Shown piece after piece: positions 1 through 33,751 of a stretch of 40,616 nucleotides of DNA. The position numbers were made by a program, and so were the translations under genes. Origin of the DNA: a virus. Lineage: Duplodnaviria > Heunggongvirae > Uroviricota > Caudoviricetes. Every line of letters begins with the position of its first letter. Position 1 is the stretch's first letter. The stretch spans positions 212,407 through 253,022 of the IMG/VR virus record IMGVR_UViG_3300038393_003162. One strand, given 5' to 3'. The notes beneath the pieces are model-generated. The model made no database searches and had not been told where the DNA came from. It saw only the letters and a list, made by a program, of their open reading frames with translations.

Positions 1-2
1 CG

Positions 3-209
3 TCAGCCTTCGTCACTTCCGTGTCCATTGTTCAGAACTCCCATCGCCTTCTTCTTGGAATAACTCCAACCTAAGAGGTCTTGTTTCCACTCGGGCCAGG
101 TCTTCACTTCTTCCCGACAATGTTTCAAGAACGCCGTGAATCTCTCTTCTTTGTCCTCGATCAGCCAGTAAGGCGTCTCAGGCTTGACTTCCGATTCATT
201 AGACATCAT
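3..209 (-). CDS. hypothetical protein (~67 aa)
   Basis: Open frame ending in TGA at 3-5; no recognisable motif. The start is uncertain because a -10 box overlaps the ATGs. Confidence 0.55.
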   Translation of the reverse strand: MMSNESEVKPETPYWLIEDKEERFTAFLKHCREEVKTWPEWKQDLLGWSYSKKKAMGVLNNGHGSDEG

Positions 210-236
210 TATACACCAATTTAATTACTTAGGCAA
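208..236 (-). promoter_or_regulatory. sigma70-type promoter
   Basis: Minus strand TTGCCT-N17-TATAAT. Confidence 0.5.
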
Positions 237-611
237 GGTCAATCCATGTGGTTGAAATTTGCCTTGTTTTTTAGTGACAAAAACAAAGGTCGCTTCGGCG
301 ATGAAGTCTTGTCCCGGTGTCGCTCTACGTTCCCGATAGGACTTGACGTTGACTTTAACTGCCTTGTTCCTGAGTTCGACCACTTGAGCCTTCATGAATA
401 CCAAGTCGCCGCATTCTGCTGCCGCGTGGAACGTGCCTTCGTACTTGTGGGTGACTGCCGAGTCACACTCCGAGTCATGGAGCAACCGGCTGACACATTG
501 GGCAGCACAGAGGTCTAGTTCACTGAAGAATTGACCGCCGAAGATCATCGGATAATGGTAATTACAATGCGCTGGCATGACCACGAAGGTCGTTTCGAAT
601 GTAAGGTTCAT
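225..611 (-). CDS. acyl-CoA thioesterase (hotdog fold, YciA-like)
   Basis: F-V-V-M-P-x-H-C-N...IFGG-x-F-F-S-E-L-D, GDLV, A-x-F-V-F-V motifs. Start trimmed to ATG 611 because the longer ORF runs into a structured RNA. Confidence 0.8.
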   Translation of the reverse strand: MNLTFETTFVVMPAHCNYHYPMIFGGQFFSELDLCAAQCVSRLLHDSECDSAVTHKYEGTFHAAAECGDLVFMKAQVVELRNKAVKVNVKSYRERRATPGQDFIAEATFVFVTKKQGKFQPHGLTLPK

Positions 612-636
612 TACTGTTGCTTTCTTAGTGTTGGTC

Positions 637-791
637 GCAGGCATTGAGTTGCTTGCTCCGCTGGCTTCAGGCGGAACGTTCAAATCGCCAAAATATAATA
701 ATTCCACCAGGTTCGCTCACAACCCAGAAAGGCTGATGAGACCTTTCTGACAAGCTGATGTTGGGCATCACCCCAACGGCTTGCCGCCTGC
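637..791 (-). ncRNA. candidate structured RNA downstream of tRNA-Val
   Basis: Terminal stem GCAGGC/GCCTGC encloses hairpins GTTGGG/CCCAAC, CAGAAAGG/CCTTTCTG and TTCCGC/GCGGAG. Confidence 0.4.
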
Positions 792-793
792 AG

Positions 794-867
794 TCGTCGC
801 TAGTGGATTTGAACCACTGACCTTTTCCATGTCAAGGAAACGCTCTACCGGGCTGAGCCAAGCGACG
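794..867 (-). tRNA. trnV: tRNA-Val(GAC)
   Basis: Acceptor CGTCGCT/AGCGACG, anticodon arm TTTCC-TTGACAT-GGAAA, T arm AGTGG-TTCAAAT-CCACT, A73; no CCA. Confidence 0.93.
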
Positions 868-873
868 ATATGT

Positions 874-1164
874 TTACCAGAAAGGTTTGATACTGATAAC
901 TTCATTTGTATCAAAATTTGTCATTACAGCGAATGGCGTCGAACAAGTGGAGGACATGATTACTGCTTGAACTCCGGGTCTTTTGCGCATCGCATTCGCA
1001 AGTTCGGCTTGATCCTCTGAGAGGATGCCATCAATTGACTGTACCTCGGGACGATCAGGAGCCTTAAACTTGGTCGTATCAATTTTGCATTCGGGAAATA
1101 TTTTAGACAGATAGGCTTTCAAGCCTTCGATCTTTGCTGGAGAAATTTCATTAACTTTTAACAT
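874..1164 (-). CDS. hypothetical protein (96 aa)
   Basis: ATG at 1164, 2 nt after the tRNA-Asp discriminator. The ORF-track start lies inside the tRNA. Confidence 0.65.
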   Translation of the reverse strand: MLKVNEISPAKIEGLKAYLSKIFPECKIDTTKFKAPDRPEVQSIDGILSEDQAELANAMRKRPGVQAVIMSSTCSTPFAVMTNFDTNEVISIKPFW

Positions 1165-1166
1165 AG

Positions 1167-1242
1167 CGGAACCGACGAGACTCGAACTCGCAAACCTCTC
1201 CCGTGACAGGGGAGCGCTCTGGACCAATTGAGCTACGGCTCC
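1167..1242 (-). tRNA. trnD: tRNA-Asp(GTC)
   Basis: GGAGCCG/CGGTTCC acceptor, CTCCC-CTGTCAC-GGGAG anticodon arm, TTCGAGT T loop, G73. Confidence 0.95.
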
Positions 1243-1248
1243 AAAATC

Positions 1249-1500
1249 TTACTCAAAACGAATCACATCACCGGGGACCACATCGCCCTTCTGGACACCA
1301 CGCAGGTAAATCCCAAGGCTTGGGCTTACCGTGGTCATGTGGTCGAATCTTTCGACGCCACTGATCATCGCGGTCAAGACCGTTCCATCTTCCTTGACCA
1401 CCTCCACATCTGCTCCAACCACAACTACATGTTTCGATTGTCGGCAGACTGCGACCAAGTCTCGTCCACGGATATGGAAAACTTCTTTTATTTCAATCAT
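1249..1500 (-). CDS. stand-alone EF-Tu domain II-like beta-barrel protein (83 aa)
   Basis: IKEVFHIRGR..., G-x-x-V-E-V, ISGVERF, LGIYLRGVQKGDVVPGDVI align with EF-Tu D2 (IEDVFSISGR...TGVEMFR...VGVLLRGIKREEIERGQVL). GAAGGA precedes ATG 1500. Confidence 0.75.
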   Translation of the reverse strand: MIEIKEVFHIRGRDLVAVCRQSKHVVVVGADVEVVKEDGTVLTAMISGVERFDHMTTVSPSLGIYLRGVQKGDVVPGDVIRFE

Positions 1501-1501
1501 A

Positions 1502-1780
1502 TTATCCTTCAATGAAAAGTTGGTCTCCGAGGTCGACATCTTCCTTGGTGATGTTGTCCGCAAGAAGTATGCCTATGGTGGCATCTTTAGGCGGAAACCA
1601 GCAGTTTGTCGACCTGAACATCTCGCAATCAATAAGCGTGGTGGTGAGTATGTCTCCATTGACTTTATGGATGGTTACCACACTACCTTGTGGTAAATTC
1701 TCACCCAAGGACTTGCCAGTGACCACAGTTCCCTTGGTCCTGATGTAGAACCTGTCTTCGATGGTTAAGATATGCTTCAT
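1502..1780 (-). CDS. stand-alone EF-Tu domain II-like beta-barrel protein (92 aa)
   Basis: LTIEDRFYIRTKGTVVTG, CEMFR, IGILLADNITKEDVDLGDQL closely match EF-Tu D2 motifs. Confidence 0.82.
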   Translation of the reverse strand: MKHILTIEDRFYIRTKGTVVTGKSLGENLPQGSVVTIHKVNGDILTTTLIDCEMFRSTNCWFPPKDATIGILLADNITKEDVDLGDQLFIEG

Positions 1781-1825
1781 GTACTATCTAATATAAACAA
1801 ATACTTATGAGTGGAGCGCCGGGGC

Positions 1826-2374
1826 TCAAACATAGTTAATACATTTTTCCATTTTCCACATAGCACTGAGCTTTAACGGCATTGTCTTTGGATCAAAATC
1901 TAGAATTTCATCATCCATGGCGGGAACAGGAACAGGATCAAGTCTCAAAGCTTCGCGAAGCTCATTCCGAGAAACCTTGCCCAATTCCCATTTTAGGATA
2001 TTCTCCTTGCATCTTTCGTTTCTAGACTTTACGACCTGATAATACTCATCGATGCTCTCTCCTTCAAAAAACCTGTCGATCACCTTGATGTACAGGACAT
2101 CGCCGATTATCTTCATTTCAGCCGAACTATACATATCTGTTTCAAGCATCATGCAATTACAGTGCATAAACTCTTCAGTATCAGTCCTTTTATTGAAAGA
2201 CATCCATGCTTGAATATATGAATCCCAAGAAGGACCTTTAGAAAGAACTTTGCCTACGATATTGCGAGTAACACCTCTGCCTCTGTAGTTCTTAACAGCC
2301 GTGTCCGATTCGACATCAATTACAGCGAACTCTTGCTCAAATGGAAATTCAACTAATTTAGTAATAATTTTCAT
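1826..2374 (-). CDS. hypothetical protein (182 aa), AT-rich
   Basis: Long ORF, co-oriented, no recognised motif. Confidence 0.7.
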   Translation of the reverse strand: MKIITKLVEFPFEQEFAVIDVESDTAVKNYRGRGVTRNIVGKVLSKGPSWDSYIQAWMSFNKRTDTEEFMHCNCMMLETDMYSSAEMKIIGDVLYIKVIDRFFEGESIDEYYQVVKSRNERCKENILKWELGKVSRNELREALRLDPVPVPAMDDEILDFDPKTMPLKLSAMWKMEKCINYV

Positions 2375-2389
2375 ACTGAAAAACCTTGA

Positions 2390-3178
2390 TTAACCTTCAT
2401 TGCCCTGTTTGGATTTATCCCATTCTGTTATTCTGACATATAGCTCATCAATTGTGATACTACAATACCTATTTTTCTTTTGATTCTCTGTGTGCCGTAA
2501 CAGTACGCAATTGGCAGGATGGGAGATCAACTCAGCCGGTATACCGTTGTCCCAGCCATACCTAATTGAGACACAATGATCTCTAGAGATTCCAGACAGA
2601 TTGTTTCCTCGGTTGAATGCCTTGTACCAACCATGTTCTTCAATAAGACCTAAGTCAAATTTATCAGGATAATTATAAATGTTGAATTTAAATTTACAAT
2701 CCGCTCTATATCGCTTATATCCTTCCGATGACCGACGAGATTGAGCCGAACATTTCTTGGAACAAAATTGTCGAGATTCTTTCTTGTCCTTAAAAAGAAT
2801 GCCACAATATAAACAAGTTTTTTCTATCCTCTGCTTCCTTAGTCCATTGCGGTCAAAAGCTTCGTTGATTTTTTGCTTGGTCGCCTCAGAATGTCGTCTT
2901 GTATTAGCACAAGCTCGACTACAATAATACGCTTCCTTCGTTGGGAAATTCTTTTCTCTCTCTTGAATTTCAAATTCTTTACCACATTTATAGCAATTCA
3001 CCTTGAAGGATTTAACCGGTCCCTTTTCTCGATCGAACCAATCTCTTGTAGCCTCTGCAAGTCTTTGTGTCTGATTCCTGGTTGGATTAAACTCGCACCA
3101 TCTAACATGGTTAGAAAAAACTCTTCCAGGCATGTCGGGGAATGTTTGGTCGCAGTATTTACATTTTCTAGTTTCCAT
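2390..3178 (-). CDS. HNH endonuclease with N-terminal Zn-finger repeats
   Basis: Several CxxC and YCSxxC motifs; C-terminal ISRDH...HPANC...ENQKK HNH-type core. Confidence 0.8.
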   Translation of the reverse strand: METRKCKYCDQTFPDMPGRVFSNHVRWCEFNPTRNQTQRLAEATRDWFDREKGPVKSFKVNCYKCGKEFEIQEREKNFPTKEAYYCSRACANTRRHSEATKQKINEAFDRNGLRKQRIEKTCLYCGILFKDKKESRQFCSKKCSAQSRRSSEGYKRYRADCKFKFNIYNYPDKFDLGLIEEHGWYKAFNRGNNLSGISRDHCVSIRYGWDNGIPAELISHPANCVLLRHTENQKKNRYCSITIDELYVRITEWDKSKQGNEG

Positions 3179-3225
3179 ACCCTAATAGAGTATGGAGTTG
3201 GTAAAAATCGAACCATAATTTTCAC

Positions 3226-3298
3226 TGGAGCTAGAGGGAGTCGAACCCTAACATTTGCGCCTTGCAAGAGCGCCGTCTTTCCATTAGACCATAGCCCC
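3226..3298 (-). tRNA. trnA: tRNA-Ala(TGC)
   Basis: GGGGCTA/TAGCTCC acceptor with G3:U70, GCGCT-CTTGCAA-GGCGC anticodon arm, TTCGACT T loop. Confidence 0.93.
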
Positions 3299-3310
3299 CA
3301 TTTAGACCAA

Positions 3311-3403
3311 TCAGTGGAACCTGGTGAGGATCAAAGCCAGAAGCCCATAACCTACGACCAACAATGCCCCAGCCAGCAAAATCCCTAATTGGTCATTTTT
3401 CAT
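3311..3403 (-). CDS. small membrane protein (30 aa, MKNDQLGILLAGALLVVGYGLLALILTRFH)
   Basis: Read manually; single hydrophobic helix filling the gap between the lipoprotein gene and tRNA-Ala. Confidence 0.55.
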   Translation of the reverse strand: MKNDQLGILLAGALLVVGYGLLALILTRFH

Positions 3404-3408
3404 TGTTT

Positions 3409-3627
3409 TCATTTTCCCGGCAACTTGGATTCTAGAGCGTCAATCTTCTTCTCGACTTGTTCAAACCGCCACTGCAGGTGGCGATAGTCGTCGTCATGAC
3501 CGCCCAGATGATAGTTATACTTGTAGGAGTCGGTGATCGGCACAACCCTGCCGTCCACTTCCACAGTTCTCTCGTGACCACAACCGACCAACCCCAGCAG
3601 CCCGCAAACGACCAGAAGCTTTTTCAT
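3409..3627 (-). CDS. putative lipoprotein (72 aa)
   Basis: MKK + hydrophobic stretch + lipobox LVG-C; C-terminal coiled-coil-like segment. Confidence 0.65.
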   Translation of the reverse strand: MKKLLVVCGLLGLVGCGHERTVEVDGRVVPITDSYKYNYHLGGHDDDYRHLQWRFEQVEKKIDALESKLPGK

Positions 3628-3692
3628 CAGTCGTAAACTCCGTAATAGAACCCTTGGAAGATACAATTGTGTTCTTCGCTCAATCTAAAAGA

Positions 3693-3947
3693 TTAAAAGC
3701 CGATGCAACGTATTGCTTTGTGACACTCATCTAAAATCTTTTCTTCACAAGCCTCAAGTTCAGCACGCGACCAGAAAAGTTGGCGACCAATCTTATGAGT
3801 TGGAAGTAATCCTCTCCTACGCCGGTCCGCCAAACCCGCAGAGCAACAACCGATAAATCGCATAGCTTTTTTGCGATCATAAACTAATTCAGTATCTGCA
3901 ACATTACGTGAACACACAGGTACTTCGCTCATGTTTAAACCCAGCAT
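3693..3947 (-). CDS. small helix-turn-helix DNA-binding protein (excisionase/HTH_17-like)
   Basis: YDRKKAMRFIG...L...RRRGLLPTHKIGRQLFWSRAEL pattern. Confidence 0.65.
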   Translation of the reverse strand: MLGLNMSEVPVCSRNVADTELVYDRKKAMRFIGCCSAGLADRRRRGLLPTHKIGRQLFWSRAELEACEEKILDECHKAIRCIGF

Positions 3948-3959
3948 ACTAGTGAATTT

Positions 3960-4130
3960 TCACTTATTAAGCAACATCTTCTCAACACGTCGGACATTAT
4001 CGTCGAACGAGGGGTTTTCCGCCCTGACCCTGTCGATCAGGGGTTTGAACACCATATCGTATTCCTTGCGGTAACTTTCCCCGAGAGTTTCGAGTCCATA
4101 CCGCTGTTCTAACTTATCCTTAGGCATCAT
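3960..4130 (-). CDS. hypothetical protein (56 aa)
   Basis: Read manually: CAGGAG SD, ATG 4130, TGA 3960; below the ORF-track cutoff. Confidence 0.6.
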   Translation of the reverse strand: MMPKDKLEQRYGLETLGESYRKEYDMVFKPLIDRVRAENPSFDDNVRRVEKMLLNK

Positions 4131-4162
4131 CGGTCTCCTGAGTTAGAGACAAAGTTTTCAAG

Positions 4163-4239
4163 GGTGTCGGACGGAATTCGAATCCGCGATCTCCTGCCTC
4201 ACAAGCAGGCGCTTTAAGCCAGACTAAGCTACCGACACC
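4163..4239 (-). tRNA. trnH: tRNA-His(GTG) with encoded G-1:C73
   Basis: G-1 + GTGTCGG/CCGACAC + C73, CCTGC-TTGTGAG-GCAGG anticodon arm, TTCGAAT T loop. Confidence 0.93.
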
Positions 4240-4245
4240 GTCTAG

Positions 4246-4265
4246 ATAGCCCCCGGAGGGGCTAT
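4246..4265. other. strong hairpin between the amidotransferase gene and tRNA-His (processing or termination signal)
   Basis: ATAGCCCC-CGGA-GGGGCTAT; no clear U tract. Confidence 0.4.
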
Positions 4266-4273
4266 GATTTGAT

Positions 4274-4978
4274 TTACGCGACCTTGCCAAACATGGTCGG
4301 TAGGTCGCTACCCTTGACATCACGCCGACAGTAGAGGAAGTCGTTGATCAGGTCTTGGTAATACTCCCAGCCCTCGTCGGTCTCCCTGTGGAGTTCGGGA
4401 TGATACTGGACGCCGAGACCATTGACCGAAGGGAAGTGGACCGCCTCGATCTCCTTCTCGACCTCGATCTCGTCGTTATCGTCGCCGAGATAGTACGTGG
4501 ACCGTTGCGGAGTTGCCCATGCCAGGACTTCCGCATCCTCGGGCGGCAGCATCATCTGGTGGTGATACGAATTCACGACCAGATATTGACCGTCATGGGT
4601 CTCGATCGTGTGATCCTTGCCCTCGTGATTCGTGAGGTGCTGGCAGAGAGTTCCGCCCGCCATCACGCACATCAGTTGAGCACCCCGACAGATCCCGAAG
4701 ATGGGGATTTTGTTCCGCTGGCAAGCCCTGAAAACATCGATCTCGTAATCATCTCGCCACACGCTGGTGTGGGTGAAATGCGACGGTCGCTGCTTGTAAT
4801 GCTTGGGATGGACATCGGCACCACCCGTGAAAACGGCACAGACGACCTGCTCGGGGGCGTAGTCCAGAATCTTCGGACTGGCGATGTACTCTCCGAGATG
4901 ACGAAACGGGTCGTAATACCCATTCCATTCCATCCTGTCGTTGACGATTAGGACCCGTCGCTTCTCCTGCTTCGCCAT
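4274..4978 (-). CDS. class I glutamine amidotransferase, gamma-glutamyl-GABA hydrolase (peptidase C26/PuuD-like) family
   Basis: FTGGADVHP, PIFGICRGAQ (nucleophile Cys), VNSYHHQ, GVQYHPE (His-x-Glu); GGAG SD before ATG 4978. Confidence 0.88.
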   Translation of the reverse strand: MAKQEKRRVLIVNDRMEWNGYYDPFRHLGEYIASPKILDYAPEQVVCAVFTGGADVHPKHYKQRPSHFTHTSVWRDDYEIDVFRACQRNKIPIFGICRGAQLMCVMAGGTLCQHLTNHEGKDHTIETHDGQYLVVNSYHHQMMLPPEDAEVLAWATPQRSTYYLGDDNDEIEVEKEIEAVHFPSVNGLGVQYHPELHRETDEGWEYYQDLINDFLYCRRDVKGSDLPTMFGKVA

Positions 4979-5111
4979 TGGTTTCTCTCCTCCGTGAGAA
5001 ATTTGCAGTGACCTGGCTGGTTGTTTTGCGATTTGGGGCAACCTATTACTACCGCCTGAACACCCACTAACACGGCAGTTGCACCAGGTCCATTACGCTT
5101 CAGATAGGTCT

Positions 5112-5139
5112 ATCATACCAGATTTGACATTTATTTCAA
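5112..5139 (-). promoter_or_regulatory. sigma70-type promoter (extended -10)
   Basis: TTGAAA-N16-TATGAT with TG upstream of the -10. Confidence 0.5.
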
Positions 5140-5141
5140 GG

Positions 5142-5345
5142 TCAAAACATCAACGGCATGATGATGTCGAAGTCATTGCTGCTCTCGACTTTTTCGATTG
5201 GGGTATATTTGTATCGGATTTCGACCTTTTGCTGCGGTGCGAAGATGGTGACGAGGGCGAACATCAGGACAACGAATGCCATGAGGAACATGCAACCCAC
5301 AAGAGCATAATCCTCAAACATCGTTGAGTCTCGATCGGTTCTCAT
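5142..5345 (-). CDS. small single-pass membrane protein
   Basis: Hydrophobic ALVGCMFLMAFVVLMFALVTIF; GGAG SD. Confidence 0.6.
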   Translation of the reverse strand: MRTDRDSTMFEDYALVGCMFLMAFVVLMFALVTIFAPQQKVEIRYKYTPIEKVESSNDFDIIMPLMF

Positions 5346-7046: not shown

Positions 7047-7077
7047 ACGGTGCCTTGGTTAAGACCAATAACTCAAG

Positions 7078-7167
7078 CAGGGACGGCAGGAATCGAACCT
7101 GCGACGGGGCTTTCGCCACTCCACATTAACAGTGTGGTACAACCAACCAAACAGTTGCCTCATCCCT
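7078..7167 (-). tRNA. trnN: tRNA-Asn(GTT) with long variable arm
   Basis: AGGGATG/CGTCCCT acceptor, CCACA-CTGTTAA-TGTGG anticodon arm, 18-nt variable region with GGC-GAAA-GCC hairpin, G73. Confidence 0.88.
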
Positions 7168-7253: not shown

Positions 7254-7877
7254 TCAGTAACTTCTTCCTTCTTTATATCTCTGTCTTCTATAATATCGAC
7301 CATTGCCCATATTTCTCCCTTTAAAAGTGGGTGTTTGTGAATCGCAATTAGGGCAAAGCAATCGCAAATTTTCTAGTCGCCAATCATCCGCATTGCCATT
7401 GATATGATCTAGAATTAAAGACAATTGCTTACCTTGCCATTCCACAATTCCACATTCTCGGCACTTATATCCTTCAGTATCCGTGAAATACCGCTTTGCC
7501 GACACCTTTCCAGGGGCTACACCCGAACTCTCCATCTCTTGACGCGATTCATTCCATTTATGTTTTTGACAACATTCATTAGAACAGAACTTTTCATTTT
7601 CTGTTGTCTTTTGACAATTTAAACATACCACATTAGGTCTTGAATAGGTATCTTTTTTAAAGTTCCTAGGCTTACCTAAATTATTGAAAGATGCCGCACA
7701 AGAATGACTACAAAATCGATTACGACGTTTCTCATAGCAAATGGAATCGTCACAATTTTTACATCTCACAGGATTCAGATTATAATCTTCTTGAAGTCTT
7801 TTATACCTCTCTTGATGTGTTTTACAAGTCTTTGTATATCCTAATTTACCTGCTTCACTTCTAGTCATCTTTCTCAT
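7254..7877 (-). CDS. HNH homing endonuclease (207 aa)
   Basis: CxxCG...LILDHINGNADDWRLENLRLLCPNCDSQT; N-terminal CxxC/FCSxxC; GGAGG SD before ATG 7877. Confidence 0.9.
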   Translation of the reverse strand: MRKMTRSEAGKLGYTKTCKTHQERYKRLQEDYNLNPVRCKNCDDSICYEKRRNRFCSHSCAASFNNLGKPRNFKKDTYSRPNVVCLNCQKTTENEKFCSNECCQKHKWNESRQEMESSGVAPGKVSAKRYFTDTEGYKCRECGIVEWQGKQLSLILDHINGNADDWRLENLRLLCPNCDSQTPTFKGRNMGNGRYYRRQRYKEGRSY

Positions 7878-8045
7878 ATAGCCTCCTTGACTATATGAGA
7901 GTATGCCTGAAATTAAAATCAAAATGAATTTAGTAAATACTTTGTACTTAGACTTAACATTCATTAAGCAAATGCGGCTCCGCTGTTTAACGTGGATACA
8001 CAGAACGCTCACGGGACAGTTTAATGTGTTGTACCTAGCACGGAA

Positions 8046-10368: not shown

Positions 10369-10407
10369 GAAAAATTATTTGTTTGAGGGACCTACCTCGG
10401 TCCTCAG

Positions 10408-10479
10408 ATGCGGTGGAAGGATTTGAACCTTCGTCCTCCAGGTTATGAGCCTGGCAAGCTACCACTGCTCCACACCGCG
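10408..10479 (-). tRNA. trnfM: initiator-type tRNA-fMet(CAT)
   Basis: CGCGGTG/CACCGCA acceptor with C1xA72 mismatch, CTCATAA loop; closely resembles bacterial tRNA-fMet. Confidence 0.9.
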
Positions 10480-19592: not shown

Positions 19593-20582
19593 TCAGGCGG
19601 CATTATTTGCGGGGATTTCAGTGTATTTCTCGATCGGTTCAACCATCTTATTCAACGCCTCGACCGCCTCATGGAAGATGCCAGGCTCGTTGGAATATTT
19701 GAGGATTCGTTTCAGGAACCAGACCTTGGTCCGGTGAAGTTCGGGACTCAAAAGATGGAATTCGTCCGCACCTTCCAGCCCCAGGATCACCAGCGCATTG
19801 CCGACATTGACCGGCTGAAGGTCGTCTATACTTTTTCCGTTACATTCCTCGACAAAATGGACATACATCCTGGTCCAGTTTTCGATATCCTCACGATCCA
19901 GCGTCCCCTCAGGGAGTCGGAGTTCTGCCGTCTTTCTCCCGTAATCCGGGTTGCGCAATCCGGTCGCATAGCCGACCAAGTTGACCGCAACCCGCTTTTC
20001 CAAGTTATGGTGTATCTCTAGGTTCTTGGGTTCCATGAAGTTGTACAACTCTTCGCCGGTCCACTTCCGATCCATGCCGAGAGCATGCTTCTTCCGCATC
20101 ATCCGAGCAAATTGGTTGTTGCGACGATGTGCCGGAAGGGCTTGGGCAATAATTTCCTCAATCTTGCACCAACGCGCCAACATGACGCCAACCTGAGATC
20201 GATTCCAGTCCGAAATATCCGCATGGACGTGGACCCCGCACTTGTGGTTGACCTCGCATTTCGCTTTCTGAAGTGCCTCGGCTACCTTGCCGATGATCTC
20301 AATGTCAGCAAGCCCCGATCCCTTGAACGACGCCACCTCGTGCCCGTAATTGCCGGGGATGGTGGCACAGGTCGCATCGGTCTTGACGCTCCAGCAATTT
20401 GAAGGAATGCCATGGACAATTCCCGTCATAGTCCATCCGCCGCTGACCAGGACGTCATGGGTGTCATCCACATTCTCGATGACTTGTCCCATGGTCGTTC
20501 GATCGACCTTCTCACTTACTTCCATCTCGACCCCGAAAGGTCGAGTAGTCACAAAAGCTTTATACTTAATGTTCGGAACCAT
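19593..20582 (-). CDS. putative amidoligase (glutamate-cysteine ligase-like COOH-NH2 ligase)
   Basis: FGVEMEV, W..K.D.T, HEVAS, VNxxCGVHVH, TAELR motifs; GGAG SD before ATG 20582. Confidence 0.8.
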   Translation of the reverse strand: MVPNIKYKAFVTTRPFGVEMEVSEKVDRTTMGQVIENVDDTHDVLVSGGWTMTGIVHGIPSNCWSVKTDATCATIPGNYGHEVASFKGSGLADIEIIGKVAEALQKAKCEVNHKCGVHVHADISDWNRSQVGVMLARWCKIEEIIAQALPAHRRNNQFARMMRKKHALGMDRKWTGEELYNFMEPKNLEIHHNLEKRVAVNLVGYATGLRNPDYGRKTAELRLPEGTLDREDIENWTRMYVHFVEECNGKSIDDLQPVNVGNALVILGLEGADEFHLLSPELHRTKVWFLKRILKYSNEPGIFHEAVEALNKMVEPIEKYTEIPANNAA

Positions 20583-20621
20583 AACCACTCCACCTTCCTT
20601 GGCAGGCATGTACACCATACT

Positions 20622-24985: not shown

Positions 24986-25723
24986 TCAAACCACTTCTCT
25001 CGACTGCTGCATCAGCTTCGGCATGACCGCCATAGCTTCTTCAATCAACTTTTCATACTCGTTGACCTTCAATGCGAAGACTCGGTAGTGATGAATGACA
25101 TTGTTTCGCATAATTTGAGGCTTGTGCCCCTTTTGTTGGGCTCGCATCGTCAAAATGAAAGAATTGCCGATCATAGGCAGTTCCTCAGGCCAAGGACCGA
25201 CATCGTCCCAGCACTCCCGAGTCACCAGCATACAATGTTCCTGGATAAAGTCAACCTTGGCGTTCTCGACAAAATACGATTGGAGGTCAGTCCCGACGAT
25301 GCCAGCGCCCTGCGACTCGGAGACACTGATCAAGAGATCCAACCATGATGGATTGAGAACTACAACATCACAGTGGAGGAACAAGAGATACTTCGAATTC
25401 TTGTCGGCTGCTGCCACGCCGCGATTCGCCGCTGCCGACCAATACATGTTCTTCTGGAGCCGGACCACCTGGACGTCCTCTTCCATCGAATCGAGGTAAT
25501 CCTGGCTCTCCTGGTCGGAGCCATTATCGACCACGATGATCTGGTAGTTATTCGCCGTGCTGTTGACGACGATCGATTGGAGCAGAATATTCAGGTGTGC
25601 TGGGCGGTCCTTGTGGACAATGATGATGCTGATCTGCTCGTCGGTGCCGTCCTGAAGCTTGACCGTCAGTTCGGGTCGTTCTCCTGTGAGCGGGTTATGC
25701 GGCGTTGGTCCTTGAATTGCCAT
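24986..25723 (-). CDS. GT2-family glycosyltransferase
   Basis: ISIIIV, IIVVDNGS, N..WSAA.NRG, LLFLHCDV. Confidence 0.85.
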   Translation of the reverse strand: MAIQGPTPHNPLTGERPELTVKLQDGTDEQISIIIVHKDRPAHLNILLQSIVVNSTANNYQIIVVDNGSDQESQDYLDSMEEDVQVVRLQKNMYWSAAANRGVAAADKNSKYLLFLHCDVVVLNPSWLDLLISVSESQGAGIVGTDLQSYFVENAKVDFIQEHCMLVTRECWDDVGPWPEELPMIGNSFILTMRAQQKGHKPQIMRNNVIHHYRVFALKVNEYEKLIEEAMAVMPKLMQQSREVV

Positions 25724-25726
25724 TAA

Positions 25727-26005
25727 TTATCCTTGCTTAATTGAAGCTAAAAGTTTCGCTATATCTGCTCGGCTGAGTTGGTCTGCCTCCTGGTCGAGAC
25801 CAACGACATCGACTTCGTAGATCCCGCGTACCGAAAAGCACTCGATCTCTCCTGCTTCGGTCTTGATCACCTCAGTCTTCTGGCGGGGTAAGGACGCCAG
25901 ATACTTCTCCGCGTCCCTCTTCTCGGCAAAGCCTTTTTCCGCCTTGACCACCATCAGGTCGCCCTCGACCTGGCGTGCTACATTCAATACAACAAATACA
26001 TTCAT
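25727..26005 (-). CDS. hypothetical protein (92 aa)
   Basis: Operon spacing. Confidence 0.65.
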   Translation of the reverse strand: MNVFVVLNVARQVEGDLMVVKAEKGFAEKRDAEKYLASLPRQKTEVIKTEAGEIECFSVRGIYEVDVVGLDQEADQLSRADIAKLLASIKQG

Positions 26006-26006
26006 T

Positions 26007-26543
26007 TTACTTCACTCCCGTACTGCCAAAGCCGGACGCGCCTCGTTCACTCTCATCAAGTTTCTCAGCCCGTTCCCAAGTGAACTTGTAGACCGGAGTC
26101 GGGCACATCTGTGCGAGGCGGTCGCCGTGGTTGATCACGAATATCTCCTTGCCGACGTTGCCGACCAGGAGACATACCCTGCCGCGATAATCCTCGTCGA
26201 TCTGTCCTGGTCCATTCAAGATCACCAGACCCCGACTGGCGAGTCCGCTTCGGGCAAAAACCTCTGCCTTGTACCCTGGCGGCAACTGCATGCTGAAGCC
26301 GCAATCGACCTTGACGCACGCCCGGTGACCGATCGTGACCGACCGCTTGCCGCTGGCGTCTGGCGGGATATTGGCACGAAGGTCGACATTAGCGGCACCT
26401 TCGGTCTCGTAGGCAGGAATCCACTCGACCACCTTGCCATCGGAGTTGGTGAATGGCTCGTCGGCGACGATCTTCGTCTTGACCTCGTTGAGATTCAGCT
26501 TATACAATTCAAACGGCAGGGGAGCCATCTTCTTCGGCTCCAT
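26007..26543 (-). CDS. dut: trimeric dUTPase
   Basis: DLRA, RSGLA, G.ID.DYRG, GDRLAQ, RGASGFGSTG. Start may be 26543 or 26630. Confidence 0.95.
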   Translation of the reverse strand: MEPKKMAPLPFELYKLNLNEVKTKIVADEPFTNSDGKVVEWIPAYETEGAANVDLRANIPPDASGKRSVTIGHRACVKVDCGFSMQLPPGYKAEVFARSGLASRGLVILNGPGQIDEDYRGRVCLLVGNVGKEIFVINHGDRLAQMCPTPVYKFTWERAEKLDESERGASGFGSTGVK

Positions 26544-26868
26544 CTTCCCTTTCTTTTTGCTGGAAGAAGGGGTGGTCTTTGTATGTTTCGTAGCTTGATT
26601 GGTCGATTCCGTCTGGTTTTTGTTCAGCATTATTTCTTTCTTCTCTGAGTTTCTGAGTGATTTCGACTACCATCTTGGACAGATTCTTCATCGCCATATT
26701 CAAGGAATTCGCGGGATACCTGGAGATCCGCTTGACCAATTCCTGGTACAATTCCGGCTCGAAGTTGCGCAACTTGATATAATTGAGGGCTTGTTCCAGG
26801 GTGATGATCTTGGGCTGGGGCTTCTTCGGCTTCTGTTGGTCACCGGGTATCTGGAAATTGATGTTCAT
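26509..26868 (-). CDS. hypothetical protein (~119 aa)
   Basis: ATGA-type overlap with the upstream gene. Confidence 0.6.
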   Translation of the reverse strand: MNINFQIPGDQQKPKKPQPKIITLEQALNYIKLRNFEPELYQELVKRISRYPANSLNMAMKNLSKMVVEITQKLREERNNAEQKPDGIDQSSYETYKDHPFFQQKEREDGAEEDGSPAV

Positions 26869-27281
26869 TCGGCTGGATTCGGACATGCGGGCTCCAATAT
26901 GACTTCGGGGGCTTCGGGAACTTGATAATCCTCAGGCATTTCCTGAGGAGGGTACATCTCCTCATGTCTCCTGACCGCTTCCGCATTCCTGTAGACCAGG
27001 TAATTCATGATGGCTTCTCGGAACAGGTCGTCCGACCCACGAAGTTCGCGAGTGGTCTCGGAGGGGATGTGGACACGATTGGTCGTGTAGTCGATGTAGG
27101 CAGTTAGGATCGACGGCTCTCCGTCCAATTCGCACGCGACATTGATGGGGATCATGTGCTGAATCTCGGTGACGAGAATCTCCTGGACCGGTGGTGCTAC
27201 CCGGACCTTTGCTTGATCTTGAGATGAAGACAATTTCAAAGCAACATGCCCATCATAAACAAAGTCTTTTCTTTCCGACAT
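26865..27281 (-). CDS. hypothetical protein (138 aa)
   Basis: Co-oriented ORF; CATAAATG at the start. Confidence 0.7.
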   Translation of the reverse strand: MSERKDFVYDGHVALKLSSSQDQAKVRVAPPVQEILVTEIQHMIPINVACELDGEPSILTAYIDYTTNRVHIPSETTRELRGSDDLFREAIMNYLVYRNAEAVRRHEEMYPPQEMPEDYQVPEAPEVILEPACPNPAE

Positions 27282-27330
27282 TTATGTACTTCCCAATAGA
27301 TATATCAGGATTACTAGAGTGTGGGAAAAC

Positions 27331-27777
27331 ATGAATTTCAAAGAATATCTCAAAGTTATTGAAGAATATTCGCTGCCGAGCGACAGCGGAGGCGTGATCA
27401 ACTACAATACGGATGGGACCTTGCCGCAGGTTTCGCCCAATGATTTCACTCGCCCCGATTCTCCTGGCGAGGTTCCTCAACACAACATCGGGCTTCCCCA
27501 AGTAACGCGACGATCAAAGGTCGTGGGGATTGATCACAAGGCAGGTGGGAATGTGGAAATCCGCCTGGAGGACCGCACAATGCTGCGGCTCACTCAGGGG
27601 CAATTCAGGATGATCGGGGGCGATCCGGTCCAGCCACCGAATTACCAAAATGGCTCGCACAGCGTCTTGACTGTAACCTTCCAGAGGAATCCTGATGACG
27701 GTAGCCAGGTTCCCTCCCAAATAACACAGGCACGTTGCGAGAACGTGCCTGGTGCAAGACTTCAAAAATTTAATTAA
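27331..27777 (+). CDS. hypothetical protein with internal-protein-like N-terminus (148 aa)
   Basis: [12 protein letters not shown]; one of only three + strand genes. Confidence 0.65.
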
Positions 27778-28870
27778 CCAGAGAGTCGCATTGCTCCTGG
27801 AACTTCTTCGACCGGCTCGAAGGGTGCTTCTTTTCGTATTCAGCAAGTGCCTTGAAAATTTTCTTCTCTTCCTCGGTCATGTCAACATAATATGTTTCCA
27901 TATCGAGGTCGAACAAGATGAAAAGATTGCCTCTCGCATTGGTCGGGGACTGGAAGACTGGCATGCCCTTGCCAGACAGCCGAATATTTTCACTGGTGGG
28001 GTGCAGACGGGGATGAACCTCGACCTCGGTCATCCCCTCCAAGGTGGGGACTTGGAGTTTGCATCCCAGAACGCATTGGCTGTAGGTTATCGGCACGGTC
28101 ACGATGATATCGTCGTTCTTGCGAACAAAGAGCGGATGGTGCTTGACGTTAACCACCACATACAGATGTCCCAAGACTCCGGTCGCGCCTCGGGCTGACT
28201 CGCCCATGCCCTCAAATCGCATCTGTAAGCCATTGGGAGTGCCGGGCGGGATCGTCACGCTAATCTCAGTGTCGACCGGCGTAGAGACGCCCATCCCGTG
28301 GCACGAATCGCACTTCTCGGCAATTGCCTTGCCGCTGCCCTGGCACATGCCGCAAGCCGACCTGATGGTCATACTGCCTTGACGCAATGTTTGCCAGCCA
28401 GAACCTTGACAGGTTGGGCACTTATCCATCTTCTTGCCGCCCGTCCCCATACATGCGGTGCAGAGGTCGCGGCGCTGGTACTTAACCTTCTTGGTGCAAC
28501 CCTTGACGATCTCGGTCAGGTCCACGTCCACCTGGACCTGGATATTTTTCGCGTGGGAGGATACGTTGCTGAAATTGCCGTTCCTCTGTCGTCCGAAGAG
28601 GTCGCTGAAAATGTCATTGAAGAAGTCGGATGGGTGGAAGTCATTGGGACGTCTCGGACCAGCATGCCCGTACTGATCATACTGCTGTCGTTTCTCTGGG
28701 TCGCCAAGAACTTCGTAGGCAGTTGCGACTTCCTTGAATTTATTCTCGGCTTCAGCATTGCCAGGGTTCTTGTCCGGATGGTACTTGATCGCCTGCTGTC
28801 GGTACGCCTTCTTGATCTCTTCCGGAGAAGCGGTCTTAGATACCCCGAGCACCTCATAATAATCTCGCAT
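27770..28870 (-). CDS. dnaJ: DnaJ chaperone (class A)
   Basis: J domain with HPD, four CxxCxGxG, C-terminal domain. Confidence 0.95.
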
Positions 28871-29682
28871 TAAAATATCTCTCCCGCTAATTTCGTTACG
28901 TTTTTGTGGAAATTACGCATTTCTTCCTCATTCTTCATCAGATTCTCTTTCACGAAGACCATCTGATGTTCATGAATCCCTTTATATTGTGCCGGGAAAC
29001 CCGTATACTCTGCTGGACCGTAGACTTTATAGAACTGCTTGAATAGTTCGCCGTCTAAATTGATTAAGAAAGGATTATCAGGGTGGTAAGGGGCAGCCGT
29101 ACTCTCGCAATACCAAATATCATCTTCTTTCATACACGACGACCGGAACGCCACCTGCGATCCATCCACCTTGCCGTAGCATCGTATCCGGCGTTTCCAT
29201 CGGTTATAGGGACCAGTCAAGGTGGTCACTTCCTTTGATGATTGTATCAGGGGATTATACAGATAAATATTAGAATAGCAATACCTAACATCTCTTCGGC
29301 TACGAAAAAATCGGTCCAACTTCCTCAGATAATCGGGATGGAGTTCATCATCATCGCATAAGGTCACACAGATGGGCTGGTCGGTGTCGGCAATTGCCTG
29401 ATTCGCGAGCTTCCCCACCGTGATTCCGACTTTGATTTTTTCTTCGAATGTCGTACCGGAATTGTAAAACCTTACCTTGTCCAAATGGTCCTTGAGCATT
29501 TCCTTCACGATCGGCTCGGCAGGGATCTCGCTCCCGTCGTCGAGGACGGCGAGGTTCCAGTGAGGGTATTGCGCATGGGACTCCAGGACACTCCTAATGG
29601 CGTTTCGCACCAAGATGGGACGATTATAATAGACCAATAAGATCAGCACGCCCAAGGATTTATTAGAAGGAACAAAAATCAT
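28870..29682 (-). CDS. GT2/GT-A fold glycosyltransferase
   Basis: [21 protein letters not shown]. Confidence 0.8.
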
Positions 29683-29684
29683 AA

Positions 29685-30386
29685 TCAGTATATTCTTAGT
29701 CTTTTATATTTATATGGGGGGACCGGTTCAGCATAAAGATTCAATGCGTTGTTATAAAGGACACCGACTCGGGGATTGCAGCTCCCGATCCAAAATTCGG
29801 CAACCGATCGATTCGACCCCATCTCGTCACGATAATCCTCATGCTTACTCCTGAAATCATATGGATGTTCCAAGCGTCGAAGATAATCATTCCTCGCCCA
29901 CCAGAAATTCCCGGAGAAATGAGGGAACGGCTTCTGTCGCCACTGAACGCCGCAAACATCATGGTTCTCAAGGGTCTTGAAGCAGATCGAATGCTGTTCA
30001 AGTACAAAATATTCCATATATTTCCGCCAATGCCATTCATTCCTCTGCAACGACTCCAGATCCTTTAATCCGGCGAAATCATGGTAGAACTTATGGTTAA
30101 CTGACCAGTGTTCAGGCGTCTTGGAAACTCCCTTGAGATGGACATAGAACGAGACGCCTTGAAGGTCATGGGATCGTTCATACAATTTTGCCAAAGTGGG
30201 ATACTCGAACTCTTCCAGGTGGGGTTTTTCCAAGGACCAATCTTGATCTGAGGTTTCCGGACCCACCTTACAAAGATTCAACCTGCAAAGGGAATGGAGA
30301 CCACTCTTGTAAATGGTCTCCATTTGATCCTGGAGGATTTGCTTCCAGTCGCCGATCGTGGCGACGTGAATATAACCTTCAATCAT
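29685..30386 (-). CDS. glycosyltransferase-associated protein (HxKG...WR..M...HFSGNFWWA pattern)
   Basis: YVHLKGVS, WRKYMEYF, HFSGNFWWARNDYL; position within a glycosylation cluster. Confidence 0.55.
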   Translation of the reverse strand: MIEGYIHVATIGDWKQILQDQMETIYKSGLHSLCRLNLCKVGPETSDQDWSLEKPHLEEFEYPTLAKLYERSHDLQGVSFYVHLKGVSKTPEHWSVNHKFYHDFAGLKDLESLQRNEWHWRKYMEYFVLEQHSICFKTLENHDVCGVQWRQKPFPHFSGNFWWARNDYLRRLEHPYDFRSKHEDYRDEMGSNRSVAEFWIGSCNPRVGVLYNNALNLYAEPVPPYKYKRLRIY

Positions 30387-31005
30387 TCTTGATTATGCGA
30401 GATAAGACCCTATCGATATTCTTACGTTTCTTGTAGTTGACATTACAAATGCCTCCATAAGAGAGAAGCCGATCTGAATTTTTCCACTGGTCTCGAAGCA
30501 TGGCGATCAGGAAACTGTCGTGGTAGTTACCGGATTTGTAGACTGCCTGCCTCTTCCTACCTTCGATCTGATATCCCAGATTAAGATCGAACGACAGGGC
30601 TGCTGGGTTATTGTCCAGGACTTCGGCTTCGAGCCTGCGGAGGTTCAGCACTTCGAAGCCGAAGTCGGTGATCGCTTCCGGCAATCTTTTGGTCCAGAGC
30701 GTACCACGATAGATCTTGGAAGCCATCATGCCGACACTGGCGATGCGGCTGATCCAGTCGATGTCGATGATGCTAACTAACCCTACAATTGGGTCCTTGA
30801 TTCCACCGTTACTTTCAACCGATGCAATCATGTAGTAATTATTTGAATTCGAAACAGCATCATACCATCTTTCCTGATCCTGTTGGGTCAAAAAGATGGT
30901 ATGATGCTGGGTTGTCCAGGAATCATTCTTCATCTGCAGGAGGGGAAGTAGGTCGCTTTTTTCTACTCTTCTTAGAATTAAACCATTTTTATGGGAATAC
31001 ATCAC
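30379..31005 (-). CDS. GNAT N-acetyltransferase (PseH/RimJ-like)
   Basis: LRRVEKSDL, F..LNLRRL.AEVL..NP.A, LGYQIEG. Confidence 0.85.
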   Translation of the reverse strand: MMYSHKNGLILRRVEKSDLLPLLQMKNDSWTTQHHTIFLTQQDQERWYDAVSNSNNYYMIASVESNGGIKDPIVGLVSIIDIDWISRIASVGMMASKIYRGTLWTKRLPEAITDFGFEVLNLRRLEAEVLDNNPAALSFDLNLGYQIEGRKRQAVYKSGNYHDSFLIAMLRDQWKNSDRLLSYGGICNVNYKKRKNIDRVLSRIIKND

Positions 31006-32096
31006 CAGCCACTCCGGATTGTATTAATGATGTGATTACGGTCATCCTCGGTAAGCCACCAGCCGTTAGGGATACACACGATGTTGGAGTAAATGGAATC
31101 GAGTCGAGGGAGGTCAAGCTTGAGGTAATCGACGCAGGTATATTGGTCATTTCTTTTATGGACCGGTCTTGCTTCGATCCCGTGTTCCATCATCTTCAAG
31201 ATGAATTCCCCACGACGCTCGACCAACATGGTATAAAGCCAACAGGACGACTCGTGGCTGGGGTTGCGTTCTAATAATTTGACACCTGGAATACCTTGGA
31301 GTTGAACGTCATAGATCAAGGAATGGCGACGATGACCATAAACCAATTTTTTGGACATCTCCAAATTCGCCAACCCGATGCTGGCGTTGATGTCGTTCAT
31401 GTGAAACTTGAATCCCCATTCCTCTATGTCGCAATTCCGGTTGTCGCGGTCGATGCCGTACCAACGGAGCAGCCGCGCCCGTTCGGTCTCTTCCTCACTG
31501 CGGCACAGGAGGACCCCGCCGTCGCCGCACGAGAGGGGCTTAATCGGACCAAAGCTGAAGACGGACAGGTTGCCGTGTGTCCCCACGGGCTGCCCCTTAT
31601 ATTTCGCCCCCCAGGCATGGGCGCAATCTTCGATAACGTGCAGCCTTTTGTTGTATTTATTCCTATATTCTTGCTTGATATGCTCGATCTGTGCGAGGTC
31701 GATGGGATAGCCGCCCCAATGAACCAACATCAGCACTTGGGTCAATTCAGTTAACTTGGAAGAAACATCTTGAAGACAGATGTTCAATGTGCCGGGATTG
31801 ACATCGACCCAGACTGGCGTCAATCCGTTGGCACGGATCGGCCAATTCGTCGCCGTGCAGGTCAATGGCGTAGTCAGAACTTGGGTTCCCATTGGCAACT
31901 TAAGCATGTGAAGAGCCAAGTGGATCGCCGAGGTCGCCGAATTGGTCGTGACGATGGAAGGATAATTGAAATGTTCTCTGAGTGCCGTCTCGAACCACTC
32001 GACCTTATTCCCTTGACCGACGTAGCCCGAGTTTAAAACTCGGGCTACGTCAAGGGCAGCATTCGGCGACATTGCCGTCTTAAACAGTGGGATCAT
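31002..32096 (-). CDS. DegT/DnrJ/EryC1/StrS PLP-dependent sugar aminotransferase
   Basis: NSATSAIHLAL, EDCAHAWG, FSFGPIKPL.CGDGG, KFHMNDI.A. Confidence 0.93.
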   Translation of the reverse strand: MIPLFKTAMSPNAALDVARVLNSGYVGQGNKVEWFETALREHFNYPSIVTTNSATSAIHLALHMLKLPMGTQVLTTPLTCTATNWPIRANGLTPVWVDVNPGTLNICLQDVSSKLTELTQVLMLVHWGGYPIDLAQIEHIKQEYRNKYNKRLHVIEDCAHAWGAKYKGQPVGTHGNLSVFSFGPIKPLSCGDGGVLLCRSEEETERARLLRWYGIDRDNRNCDIEEWGFKFHMNDINASIGLANLEMSKKLVYGHRRHSLIYDVQLQGIPGVKLLERNPSHESSCWLYTMLVERRGEFILKMMEHGIEARPVHKRNDQYTCVDYLKLDLPRLDSIYSNIVCIPNGWWLTEDDRNHIINTIRSGW

Positions 32097-32566: not shown

Positions 32567-33751
32567 TCAAGTCCAATAGTCGATGAAATACAGCTTGCCG
32601 TCCGCCTCTCCTAGAAGCACAGGAATGACCATCTTCTCTTCGATCATTTTCATGTCGGAGAGTTGGATTTCATTCAAGGGAGAGCCGTTGACAGTTGGAA
32701 CCGCCCCATCGGGACGGAATCTCGTGAATGTCGGGACCAACACGGAATAGTGGTCGAAGAGCGGCTTACCAGCCACATCAGGAAATGACTCCAGATGAGC
32801 AAGAAGTTTTTGCATTCGCTCTGGGGTGACCGGCATACTAGTGGTCGAATATATCCTCGGATGATATGCCATTCCGTTGGTAGGAATGTCTTTCCCGTTC
32901 AGAGATTCGAACTGGCTTTTCATGGCATTCGTTCCACGGATTCGAGTCGTTCCATTCATGGTCGTCATCTCAAATCCGTGAACCCTAGCAAGAACGACGG
33001 CTGCGGTCGAGATGGCACATCGATTAAAGCCGTAGTAACGGTCACGAGATGCGGACTGGAAGGTATCCAGTCGTTCCTTGGGACGCTGCGCCATGGCGAC
33101 GAGACCCATCTTGGCAAGATGCTCAACCTTCCGTTGTATCTTAGTGATTTCTTCACCGAAAGGAATCTCGTTCCGCACAAACCCGGCAAAGGACGTTGGG
33201 TAGTTATCCCACGAATCCGACTGGTCCTTGTAGAAACTGAATAGGTTTGTCTCCTGGCATCCTCGCCGCTGCCTCATCGCCAAGCGATGATTTTGGTCCT
33301 TGACGAAACGAACCAGGCTACAAGATTTCTTGTTGGGGTCTGTGATCCTCAACGTGACGAAATCGTAAACGTCCACGTCTTTGAATATCTTAGGAAGATA
33401 TTCGGCGATCAACCGATGACCCTTCTCACGGGAATACTTCGCGATGTCCAGCAGTTCGGTTGCGGTCAAGGTGAGCGAAGTATTGCTTCCGAGGGCGTTG
33501 GCAGCGATCGTCTCGACGTCGGGATGTTCGAGGTCGGCAACCGCCGCGAAGGCGCGAATATGTTCGCCGGTCGTGCCAAGGGCGATTGCTACGGTCTCAG
33601 CATCATATTCTAGCACGGTCTTCATCAGACCATTGGTCGAACCAATGGGTCTGATGGCAGAGCCATCGTTCTTCATCGCCTCATCTACCTTGGCATTGAC
33701 CAAAGTTGATTCGTTGGCAAGGTATTCCGGCGAATTCGCGTCCGTTCTCAT
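32567..33751 (-). CDS. hypothetical protein (~394 aa)
   Basis: ATGA overlap with the infC stop. Confidence 0.75.
   Translation of the reverse strand: MRTDANSPEYLANESTLVNAKVDEAMKNDGSAIRPIGSTNGLMKTVLEYDAETVAIALGTTGEHIRAFAAVADLEHPDVETIAANALGSNTSLTLTATELLDIAKYSREKGHRLIAEYLPKIFKDVDVYDFVTLRITDPNKKSCSLVRFVKDQNHRLAMRQRRGCQETNLFSFYKDQSDSWDNYPTSFAGFVRNEIPFGEEITKIQRKVEHLAKMGLVAMAQRPKERLDTFQSASRDRYYGFNRCAISTAAVVLARVHGFEMTTMNGTTRIRGTNAMKSQFESLNGKDIPTNGMAYHPRIYSTTSMPVTPERMQKLLAHLESFPDVAGKPLFDHYSVLVPTFTRFRPDGAVPTVNGSPLNEIQLSDMKMIEEKMVIPVLLGEADGKLYFIDYWT

Follow-up and report, generated by a model that had tools for sequence, protein, structure and literature searches.

Two adjacent phage genes for stand-alone homologues of EF-Tu domain II, one keeping the pocket for the tRNA 3' end

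The second domain of bacterial EF-Tu (residues ~205-296 of Escherichia coli TufA; PF03144; TIGR00485) is a small barrel that serves both transfer RNA (tRNA) and proteins. Its residues F218, E259 and R262 touch aminoacyl-tRNA in the 3'-acceptor region (PMC9071432), E259 being a contact to the tRNA end (PMC9540759), and for these three residues and R288 roles in the pocket or at the acceptor end are confirmed in the literature (PMC9071432, PMC9540759); further contacts to aminoacyl-tRNA lie in the other EF-Tu domains (His66, R58, R318 and H319; PMC9071432). The EC869 and NC101 CdiA-CT tRNases, which have the BECR fold, dock on domain II via the same F218, E259 and R262 (PMC9071432, PMC5737660), the NC101 toxin binding domain 2 exclusively (PMC5737660); furthermore, EF-Tu is recruited by Avs7 through domains II and III and is cut by Lit and by type IV Thoeris (PMC13581612). 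Among solo barrels of this kind, our literature search found experimental work on one alone, Pbp11 of the Thermococcales (PDB 7ANU; NF041207). It is a small stand-alone archaeal barrel resembling EF-Tu domain II, with E259 conserved; it interacts with PAN, a regulator of the proteasome, binds tRNA in gel-shift assays and needs a flexible basic N-terminal tail for that binding (PMC9540759). Here we describe two adjacent genes for such barrels, encoding proteins of 83 amino acids (aa; P0001) and 92 aa (P0002), in a huge tailed phage (Caudoviricetes) from soil. They lie in a window of 40,616 nucleotides (nt), by which we mean the whole stretch of DNA analysed: the reverse strand of bases 4847-45462 in the 195,476-bp IMG/VR virus record IMGVR_UViG_3300038393_003162 (CheckV completeness 66%). 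Positions below are those of the window unless stated otherwise.

P0001 and P0002 are almost certainly domain-II homologues of EF-Tu. In a phmmer search of the PDB, EF-Tu chains were the sole significant matches, always at residues ~205-295, with best expect values (E) of 1e-5 for the 83-aa open reading frame (ORF) and 4e-3 for the 92-aa ORF, and the NCBIfam EF-Tu models (TIGR00485; 396 positions) aligned over their positions 213-295 (E 3.5e-8 and 5.7e-6). Against a profile built from eight EF-Tu domain II sequences, hhalign gave a probability of 98.4% (E 5.8e-15) when the 83-aa ORF was combined in an alignment with its relative P0005, and of 93.9% (E 1.5e-7) when the 92-aa ORF was used by itself. 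The fold agrees: for the proteins' own models in the ESM Atlas (predicted local distance difference test, pLDDT, 0.84 and 0.76), the nearest structures are EF-Tu domain II, with template-modelling (TM) scores of 0.84 and 0.81 by query. The multiple alignment with EF-Tu is gap-poor, and motifs are visible in both copies, the 92-aa protein sharing IED.F, GTVVTG and EMFR of the aminoacyl-A76 pocket with EF-Tu and the 83-aa protein having VF.I.GR and GVE.F. The distance is nonetheless large, since the phage proteins are 28-33% identical to EF-Tu domain II, as compared with 66-71% for EF-Tus across bacteria, and 26% identical to each other (E 2e-5). The Pfam model PF03144 (GTP_EFTU_D2; gathering threshold 30.3 bits) had no match to either protein at E up to 10, nor did a six-frame search of the genome with it pick up the pair; the homology therefore rests on the longer EF-Tu models, profile-profile comparison and fold. 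PHROGs offered nothing informative for either protein. Single-sequence AlphaFold2 models of the two (mean pLDDT 53 and 40) were too poor for use, and a complex prediction for the 92-aa and 83-aa pair scored 0.01, which speaks neither for nor against a heterodimer.

Neither protein has any extension beyond the barrel. Domain-II homology begins at residue 1-4, both ORFs start at the domain-II boundary and stop at its end, and the 195-kb record holds no match anywhere to the EF-Tu G domain (PF00009) or domain III (PF03143), and no third domain-II copy. The original prediction, a model's reading of the letters of this DNA, had claimed two adjacent stand-alone domain II ORFs of these lengths without GTPase domain or domain III, pocket motifs kept in the longer copy and only in part in the shorter, and had named profile and structure comparison as the way to check it; on each of these points the family models, hhalign, PDB matches, Atlas structures, ORF boundaries and alignment bear it out. 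A split EF-Tu, with its G domain and domain III encoded elsewhere, was considered and rejected, there being no match to them within these 195 kb of a ~585-kb genome; an identical 83-aa protein is also encoded on a 585,064-bp contig.

The aminoacyl-A76 pocket was mapped onto both proteins by alignment to E. coli EF-Tu numbering, using a list of residues that we take to be those of the ternary-complex structures (Nissen et al., 1995, 1999). P0002 retains E215, D216, F218, I220, V226, T228, E259, M260, F261, R262 and L277, its only pocket changes being N273T and R288L. P0001 retains only F218, I220, V226, E259 and F261, and carries E215K, D216E, T228V, R262D, N273S, L277Y and R288P. Over a core set of E215, D216, F218, T228, E259, F261 and R262, all seven are present in P0002 and three (F218, E259 and F261) in P0001. 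We then limited an enrichment test to columns invariant among nine diverse EF-Tus: P0002 kept 11 of 13 pocket positions as against 7 of 27 other invariant positions (Fisher p 6.5e-4), and P0001 showed no pocket bias (5/13 versus 12/26 of the others). As judged from the alignment, P0002 has selectively kept EF-Tu's domain-II half of the pocket for the aminoacylated 3' adenosine while its remaining surface diverged, and P0001 has kept the hydrophobic lining and E259 and lost the polar pocket residues.

We propose that the phage barrels may act as free copies of the EF-Tu domain-II pocket face. The 92-aa protein would bind the 3' (aminoacyl-)adenosine ends of tRNAs, possibly of phage tRNAs transcribed from the same region, so that the bound end is shielded or marked during infection, and the 83-aa protein would be a variant of altered specificity or an adaptor. 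We put the probability of this reading at roughly 0.35. The original prediction had put forward caps for aminoacyl ends or EF-Tu decoys, and the selective retention of the pocket face in the 92-aa copy would agree with either. For the binding of tRNA ends speak this retention, the known roles of F218, E259 and R262 at the acceptor end, and the intact and stable state of the genes. Both genes share their strand with the tRNAs, and Pbp11, as a tRNA-binding solo barrel, may serve by analogy as a precedent.

A considerable number of observations weigh against binding of tRNA ends. Aminoacyl-tRNA is also held by domains I and III of EF-Tu, both absent here. R288, which contacts the tRNA 5' phosphate, has become L or P and N273 has become T or S in the two copies. 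Both proteins are acidic where domain II of E. coli is basic (isoelectric points of 4.9 and 5.9 with net charges of -4 and -2, as against an isoelectric point of 8.9), and these tail-less barrels have no basic N-terminal tail of the kind found in Pbp11. Abundant host EF-Tu would also compete strongly for aminoacyl-tRNA. Among the relatives described below, pockets are partial, P0020 being without F261 and R262 and P0005 without T228, and the contigs that carry P0005, only 1.0-1.3 kb long, show neither a tRNA gene nor another domain-II gene. Many of the ORFs between the tRNA genes around the pair are unrelated, HNH endonucleases, a 4HBT thioesterase and a GATase among them, and position among tRNAs is by itself weak evidence of function. 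Finally, retention of F218, E259 and R262 fails to separate tRNA binding from protein binding, because the same three residues also dock toxins.

Indeed, the retained face of P0002 would fit a tRNA 3'-end binder and a protein decoy about equally well. As EF-Tu decoys, the barrels would mimic the host domain-II face and soak up the tRNase toxins or defence proteins that dock there, in complexes left unproductive without domains I and III and EF-Ts. The role of domain II as a docking site of tRNase toxins, on which the original prediction had also drawn, holds for the CdiA toxins described above, and the residues that they use are all kept in the 92-aa copy. The recruitment of EF-Tu by Avs7 through domains II and III and the cleavage of EF-Tu by Lit and type IV Thoeris point the same way, as do the selective retention of the pocket face and the small, acidic, tail-less nature of the proteins, which is more what one expects of a protein mimic than of an RNA binder. 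With so low an identity to EF-Tu and so few of the non-pocket invariants kept, however, most of the larger interface would not be mimicked; a decoy must moreover outcompete an EF-Tu that makes up 6-10% of the host proteome (PMC13581612), the 83-aa copy carries R262D and E215K, and no relative turned up in the other phage collections searched, though useful anti-defence genes usually spread. We regard the decoy as somewhat unlikely. Binding of tRNA ends is slightly favoured because E215, D216 and T228, on the amino-acid side of the pocket, are also kept in P0002, and because the genes are probably co-transcribed with tRNAs in a phage that, with 34 of them, invests heavily in tRNA biology.

The barrels are not alone in nature. 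An exhaustive phmmer search of P0001 against 1.84 billion representatives returned 28 matches at E up to 1e-3, most of them solo domain-II proteins (83-153 aa) or proteins of two or three tandem domain-II barrels; the best matches were such solo and tandem proteins, at 36-50 bits, compared with 29 bits for EF-Tu in the PDB search. The ESM Atlas contains several clusters of solo domain-II proteins, with 60-340 members of 93-112 aa, and these show such proteins to be common in Actinomycetota, Chloroflexota, Bacillota and other phyla. Their source annotations read 'EF-Tu-like GTPase', 'EF-Tu/IF-2/RF-3 family GTPase' or 'zinc-ribbon domain-containing protein'. This bacterial family is widespread, mis-annotated and, as far as our literature search shows, unstudied, and because solo domain-II proteins are so widespread in bacteria, the novelty of the pair was overstated in the first reading of this DNA. 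Like the phage proteins, the bacterial solo and tandem proteins are domain-II barrels without G domain or domain III; unlike them, they are chromosomal, have fuller pocket motifs and mostly begin with a further segment (disordered, zinc-ribbon, membrane or signal), whereas the phage proteins consist of the barrel only, have diverged far more and are encoded by two separate adjacent genes amid tRNA genes. The Pbp11 model NF041207 (cut-off 100 bits) gives weak matches to bacterial solo proteins (E 1.6e-7 to 5.7e-4) and none to P0001 or P0002 at E up to 1. As a separate observation from the exhaustive search, four large proteins (P0004, P0006, P0008 and P0012; 1290-1825 aa) each match P0001 in 2-14 short stretches, which may be repeated small beta-rich modules or compositional matches.

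The settings of the bacterial proteins are varied. Solo-barrel N-termini include a lipoprotein-type signal (P0022), a zinc ribbon (P0028), a zinc ribbon with membrane segments (P0024) and a formylglycine-generating-enzyme-like region (P0019), and these differences suggest that the domain-II barrel has been reused in several cellular locations. Gene contexts are likewise mixed, with zinc-ribbon genes downstream of an FtsK/SpoIIIE ATPase, and with FecR, YjbR or bPH_2. The proteins P0007 and P0025, with two or three tandem barrels (L011 1-5939 and L025 1-7239, from two unrelated assemblies), are encoded divergently from a conserved operon for a Ser/Thr kinase, vWA, PP2C, transglutaminase, an 84-85-aa protein and an FtsK/SpoIIIE ATPase. 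It could be that the phage has reused the barrel for an unrelated job, as a generic small binding or adaptor domain, perhaps within a phage complex, whose pocket residues are kept mainly for folding. Such mixed architecture and context, from zinc-ribbon fusions and the P0022 lipoprotein to the kinase operon, would fit that explanation; F218, I220 and V226 are present in all copies, including the degenerate one, which suggests a role in the core, and the neighbouring phage ORFs offer no functional link. On the other hand, E215, D216, T228, E259 and R262 are unneeded for the core and are kept in the 92-aa protein, the 83-aa model folds regardless, and the enrichment test argues for selection on the pocket face. 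We consider a generic barrel unlikely.

The closest relative of P0001 is P0005 (91 aa, 44% identical), whose gene directly follows a family-A DNA polymerase gene. In a tree with long branches, P0001 groups with P0005 (support 97/87) and P0002 with the 83-aa P0020 (93/75); the canonical EF-Tu clade excludes all four (95/95), and support for uniting the four with one another is weak (73/82). From this tree, in which each copy pairs with its own distant relative outside the EF-Tu clade, the pair appears to represent two old lineages, with no recent capture of a host tuf gene. A decayed tuf gene was also tried as a candidate, and was rejected on the lack of any flanking trace of domain I or III together with the separate relative of each copy.

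We found no close relatives in GenBank phages by megablast or tblastn, none in IMG/VR with peptide patterns derived from either protein or from the P0001/P0005 alignment, and none in JGI metagenome contigs; a word-based protein search returned only P0001 and P0002 themselves. With the solo domain-II protein P0011 as query, GenBank phages yielded only full-length tuf, on mislabelled or host-containing records, and an alignment-pattern scan of IMG/VR only full-length EF-Tu genes. Several records filed as phage or viral (in GenBank, and the IMG/VR loci L013-L024) do contain complete bacterial EF-Tu genes, which in some records lie at the end of a contig, while other records are plainly bacterial contigs (Salmonella whole-genome-shotgun entries); these are most likely host DNA or mislabelled records. 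Our literature search found no published description of a phage solo domain-II gene.

The two genes are closely joined. Between the stop codon of the 92-aa gene (TAA, 1504-1502) and the ATG of the 83-aa gene (1500-1498) there is a single base, and an AAGGA Shine-Dalgarno sequence (1509-1505) lies within the 3' end of the upstream 92-aa gene; this TAA-T-ATG layout with its internal AAGGA suggests that P0002 and P0001 are translationally coupled. The junction is unchanged in independent metagenome contigs (for example in L003, with the genes at 124-402 and 404-655), and in four further soil and rhizosphere runs the contigs are identical wherever they cover the two genes. The gene pair is thus intact and stable, with the same sequence across several independent soil and rhizosphere assemblies; because the covering contigs are identical, population substitutions could not be counted for a selection test. 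A look-up of RNA samples containing the region listed none.

Two further explanations, both most improbable in our view, are that the pair is what is left, without function, of a tuf gene once captured, or that it serves as a sponge for domain-II-binding antibiotics. GE2270A-type thiopeptides have their binding site inside domain II, close to the residues kept here, which would suit a sponge, as would the soil and rhizosphere habitat of the phage, although the prior for such a function is low. Remnants, for their part, are hard to square with two intact frames that start exactly at the domain boundary, with a ribosome-binding site at their junction, no trace of domain I or III in the flanks, a separate distant relative for each copy, and confident Atlas models.

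Table 1. Positions of the domain-II gene pair and of neighbouring features in the window.
Feature	Position	Strand	Remark
92-aa solo EF-Tu domain-II barrel gene (P0002)	1502-1780	minus	pocket-keeping copy
83-aa solo EF-Tu domain-II barrel gene (P0001)	1249-1500	minus	degenerate-pocket copy
Gene junction P0002/P0001	1498-1509	minus	sequence
96-aa ORF	874-1164		ATG 1-2 nt past tRNA-Asp 3' end; stop 6 nt before tRNA-Val
tRNA-Asp (GTC)	1166-1242	minus	5' end 6 nt past stop of 83-aa gene
Orphan 182-aa ORF	1826-2374		between pair and tRNA-Ala; PHROGs and Pfam uninformative
HNH-type endonuclease gene, Cys-rich	2390-3178	minus	between pair and tRNA-Ala
tRNA-Ala (TGC)	3226-3298	minus	next tRNA upstream of pair
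Peptidase_C26/GATase gene	4274-5041	minus	
HNH-type endonuclease gene, Cys-rich	7254-8012	minus	among tRNA genes
Amidoligase_2 gene	19593-20618	minus	
Glycosyltransferase, GNAT acetyltransferase and DegT aminotransferase gene run	24986-32096	minus	

The neighbours of P0001 and P0002 are all on the same strand as the pair (Table 1). Since the 83-aa gene and tRNA-Asp share a strand with no terminator between them, tRNA-Asp is probably co-transcribed with the domain-II genes; a promoter and terminator scan found no minus-strand terminator anywhere in 1-5200, its counts being at chance level. The pair had been described as embedded in a tRNA array. It does lie between tRNA-Asp and tRNA-Ala, but the 'array' amounts to 33 tRNAs spread loosely over 34 kb, with many unrelated ORFs among them; the whole 195-kb record has 34 tRNA genes. 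The two Cys-rich HNH-type genes (phrog_23051, with a weak HNH PHROG match and a weak PF13392 match) probably encode homing endonucleases. For the 96-aa ORF, PHROGs and Pfam returned nothing informative. In 793-1251 the ORFs are closely hemmed in by tRNAs, the 96-aa ORF having no space in front of it for a ribosome-binding site, and it looks as though tRNA-punctuated processing would yield a leaderless messenger RNA there.

It had also been suggested that IF3 and tRNA-fMet mark a dedicated translation-control module. Both genes are present, the tRNA-Met at 10407-10479 having the C1-A72 mismatch typical of an initiator, but a common module with the pair is not supported: the IF3 gene, at 33748-34290, is 32 kb away, and between it and the pair lie genes for an NAD-dependent DNA ligase, an amidoligase, a sigma factor, DnaJ, PhoH and several sugar-modifying enzymes. 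These translation genes, IF3 and the tRNAs, bear on one more explanation, in which free domain II would occupy its usual site on the 30S shoulder, or bind the surface of domain I that open EF-Tu-GDP exposes, to retune or shut off host translation. Translational GTPases contact the 30S shoulder by domain II, which lends this some appeal. A block of that kind would hit phage translation too, however, the acidic proteins are unfavourable for contact with ribosomal RNA, and the distant IF3 gene is unlinked to the pair; we find such a modulator quite improbable.

Other features of the genome deserve mention in their own right. The tRNA-Asn (GTT) at 7077-7167 on the minus strand is 91 nt long, far above the normal class I length, and the Rfam tRNA model is silent on it at gathering score. 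Outside the window, ARAGORN reports a tRNA with a CTA anticodon (record positions 139647-139720) and two tRNA-like genes with the four-base anticodons aaag and gcaa (62311-62393 and 63360-63436). An anticodon CTA would read the TAG stop. The GATase, the Amidoligase_2 and the glycosyltransferase, GNAT and DegT genes make up a content typical of phage nucleic-acid or glycan modification.

What is new here is the phage setting and the tandem pair of solo domain II proteins, which are unusually minimal. EF-Tu domain II is a hub: it meets the charged end of every elongator tRNA, is the dock for tRNase toxins and is used by at least one anti-phage sensor. The asymmetry of the pair, with one copy pocket-competent and the other pocket-degenerate as read from their residues, is open to experiment, and two such small and easily expressed proteins could probe whether an isolated pocket face binds tRNA ends or titrates EF-Tu-dependent toxins and defences. 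It is possible, though doubtful, that the pocket-bearing barrel works as a free competitor that shields phage tRNA 3' ends or neutralises domain-II-dependent host toxins or defences; if true, either role would be a previously undescribed viral counter-measure by mimicry of a translation-factor domain. If the barrels are generic, the finding is a modest annotation point only. The pair offers a first viral foothold in a large bacterial family of solo domain-II proteins.

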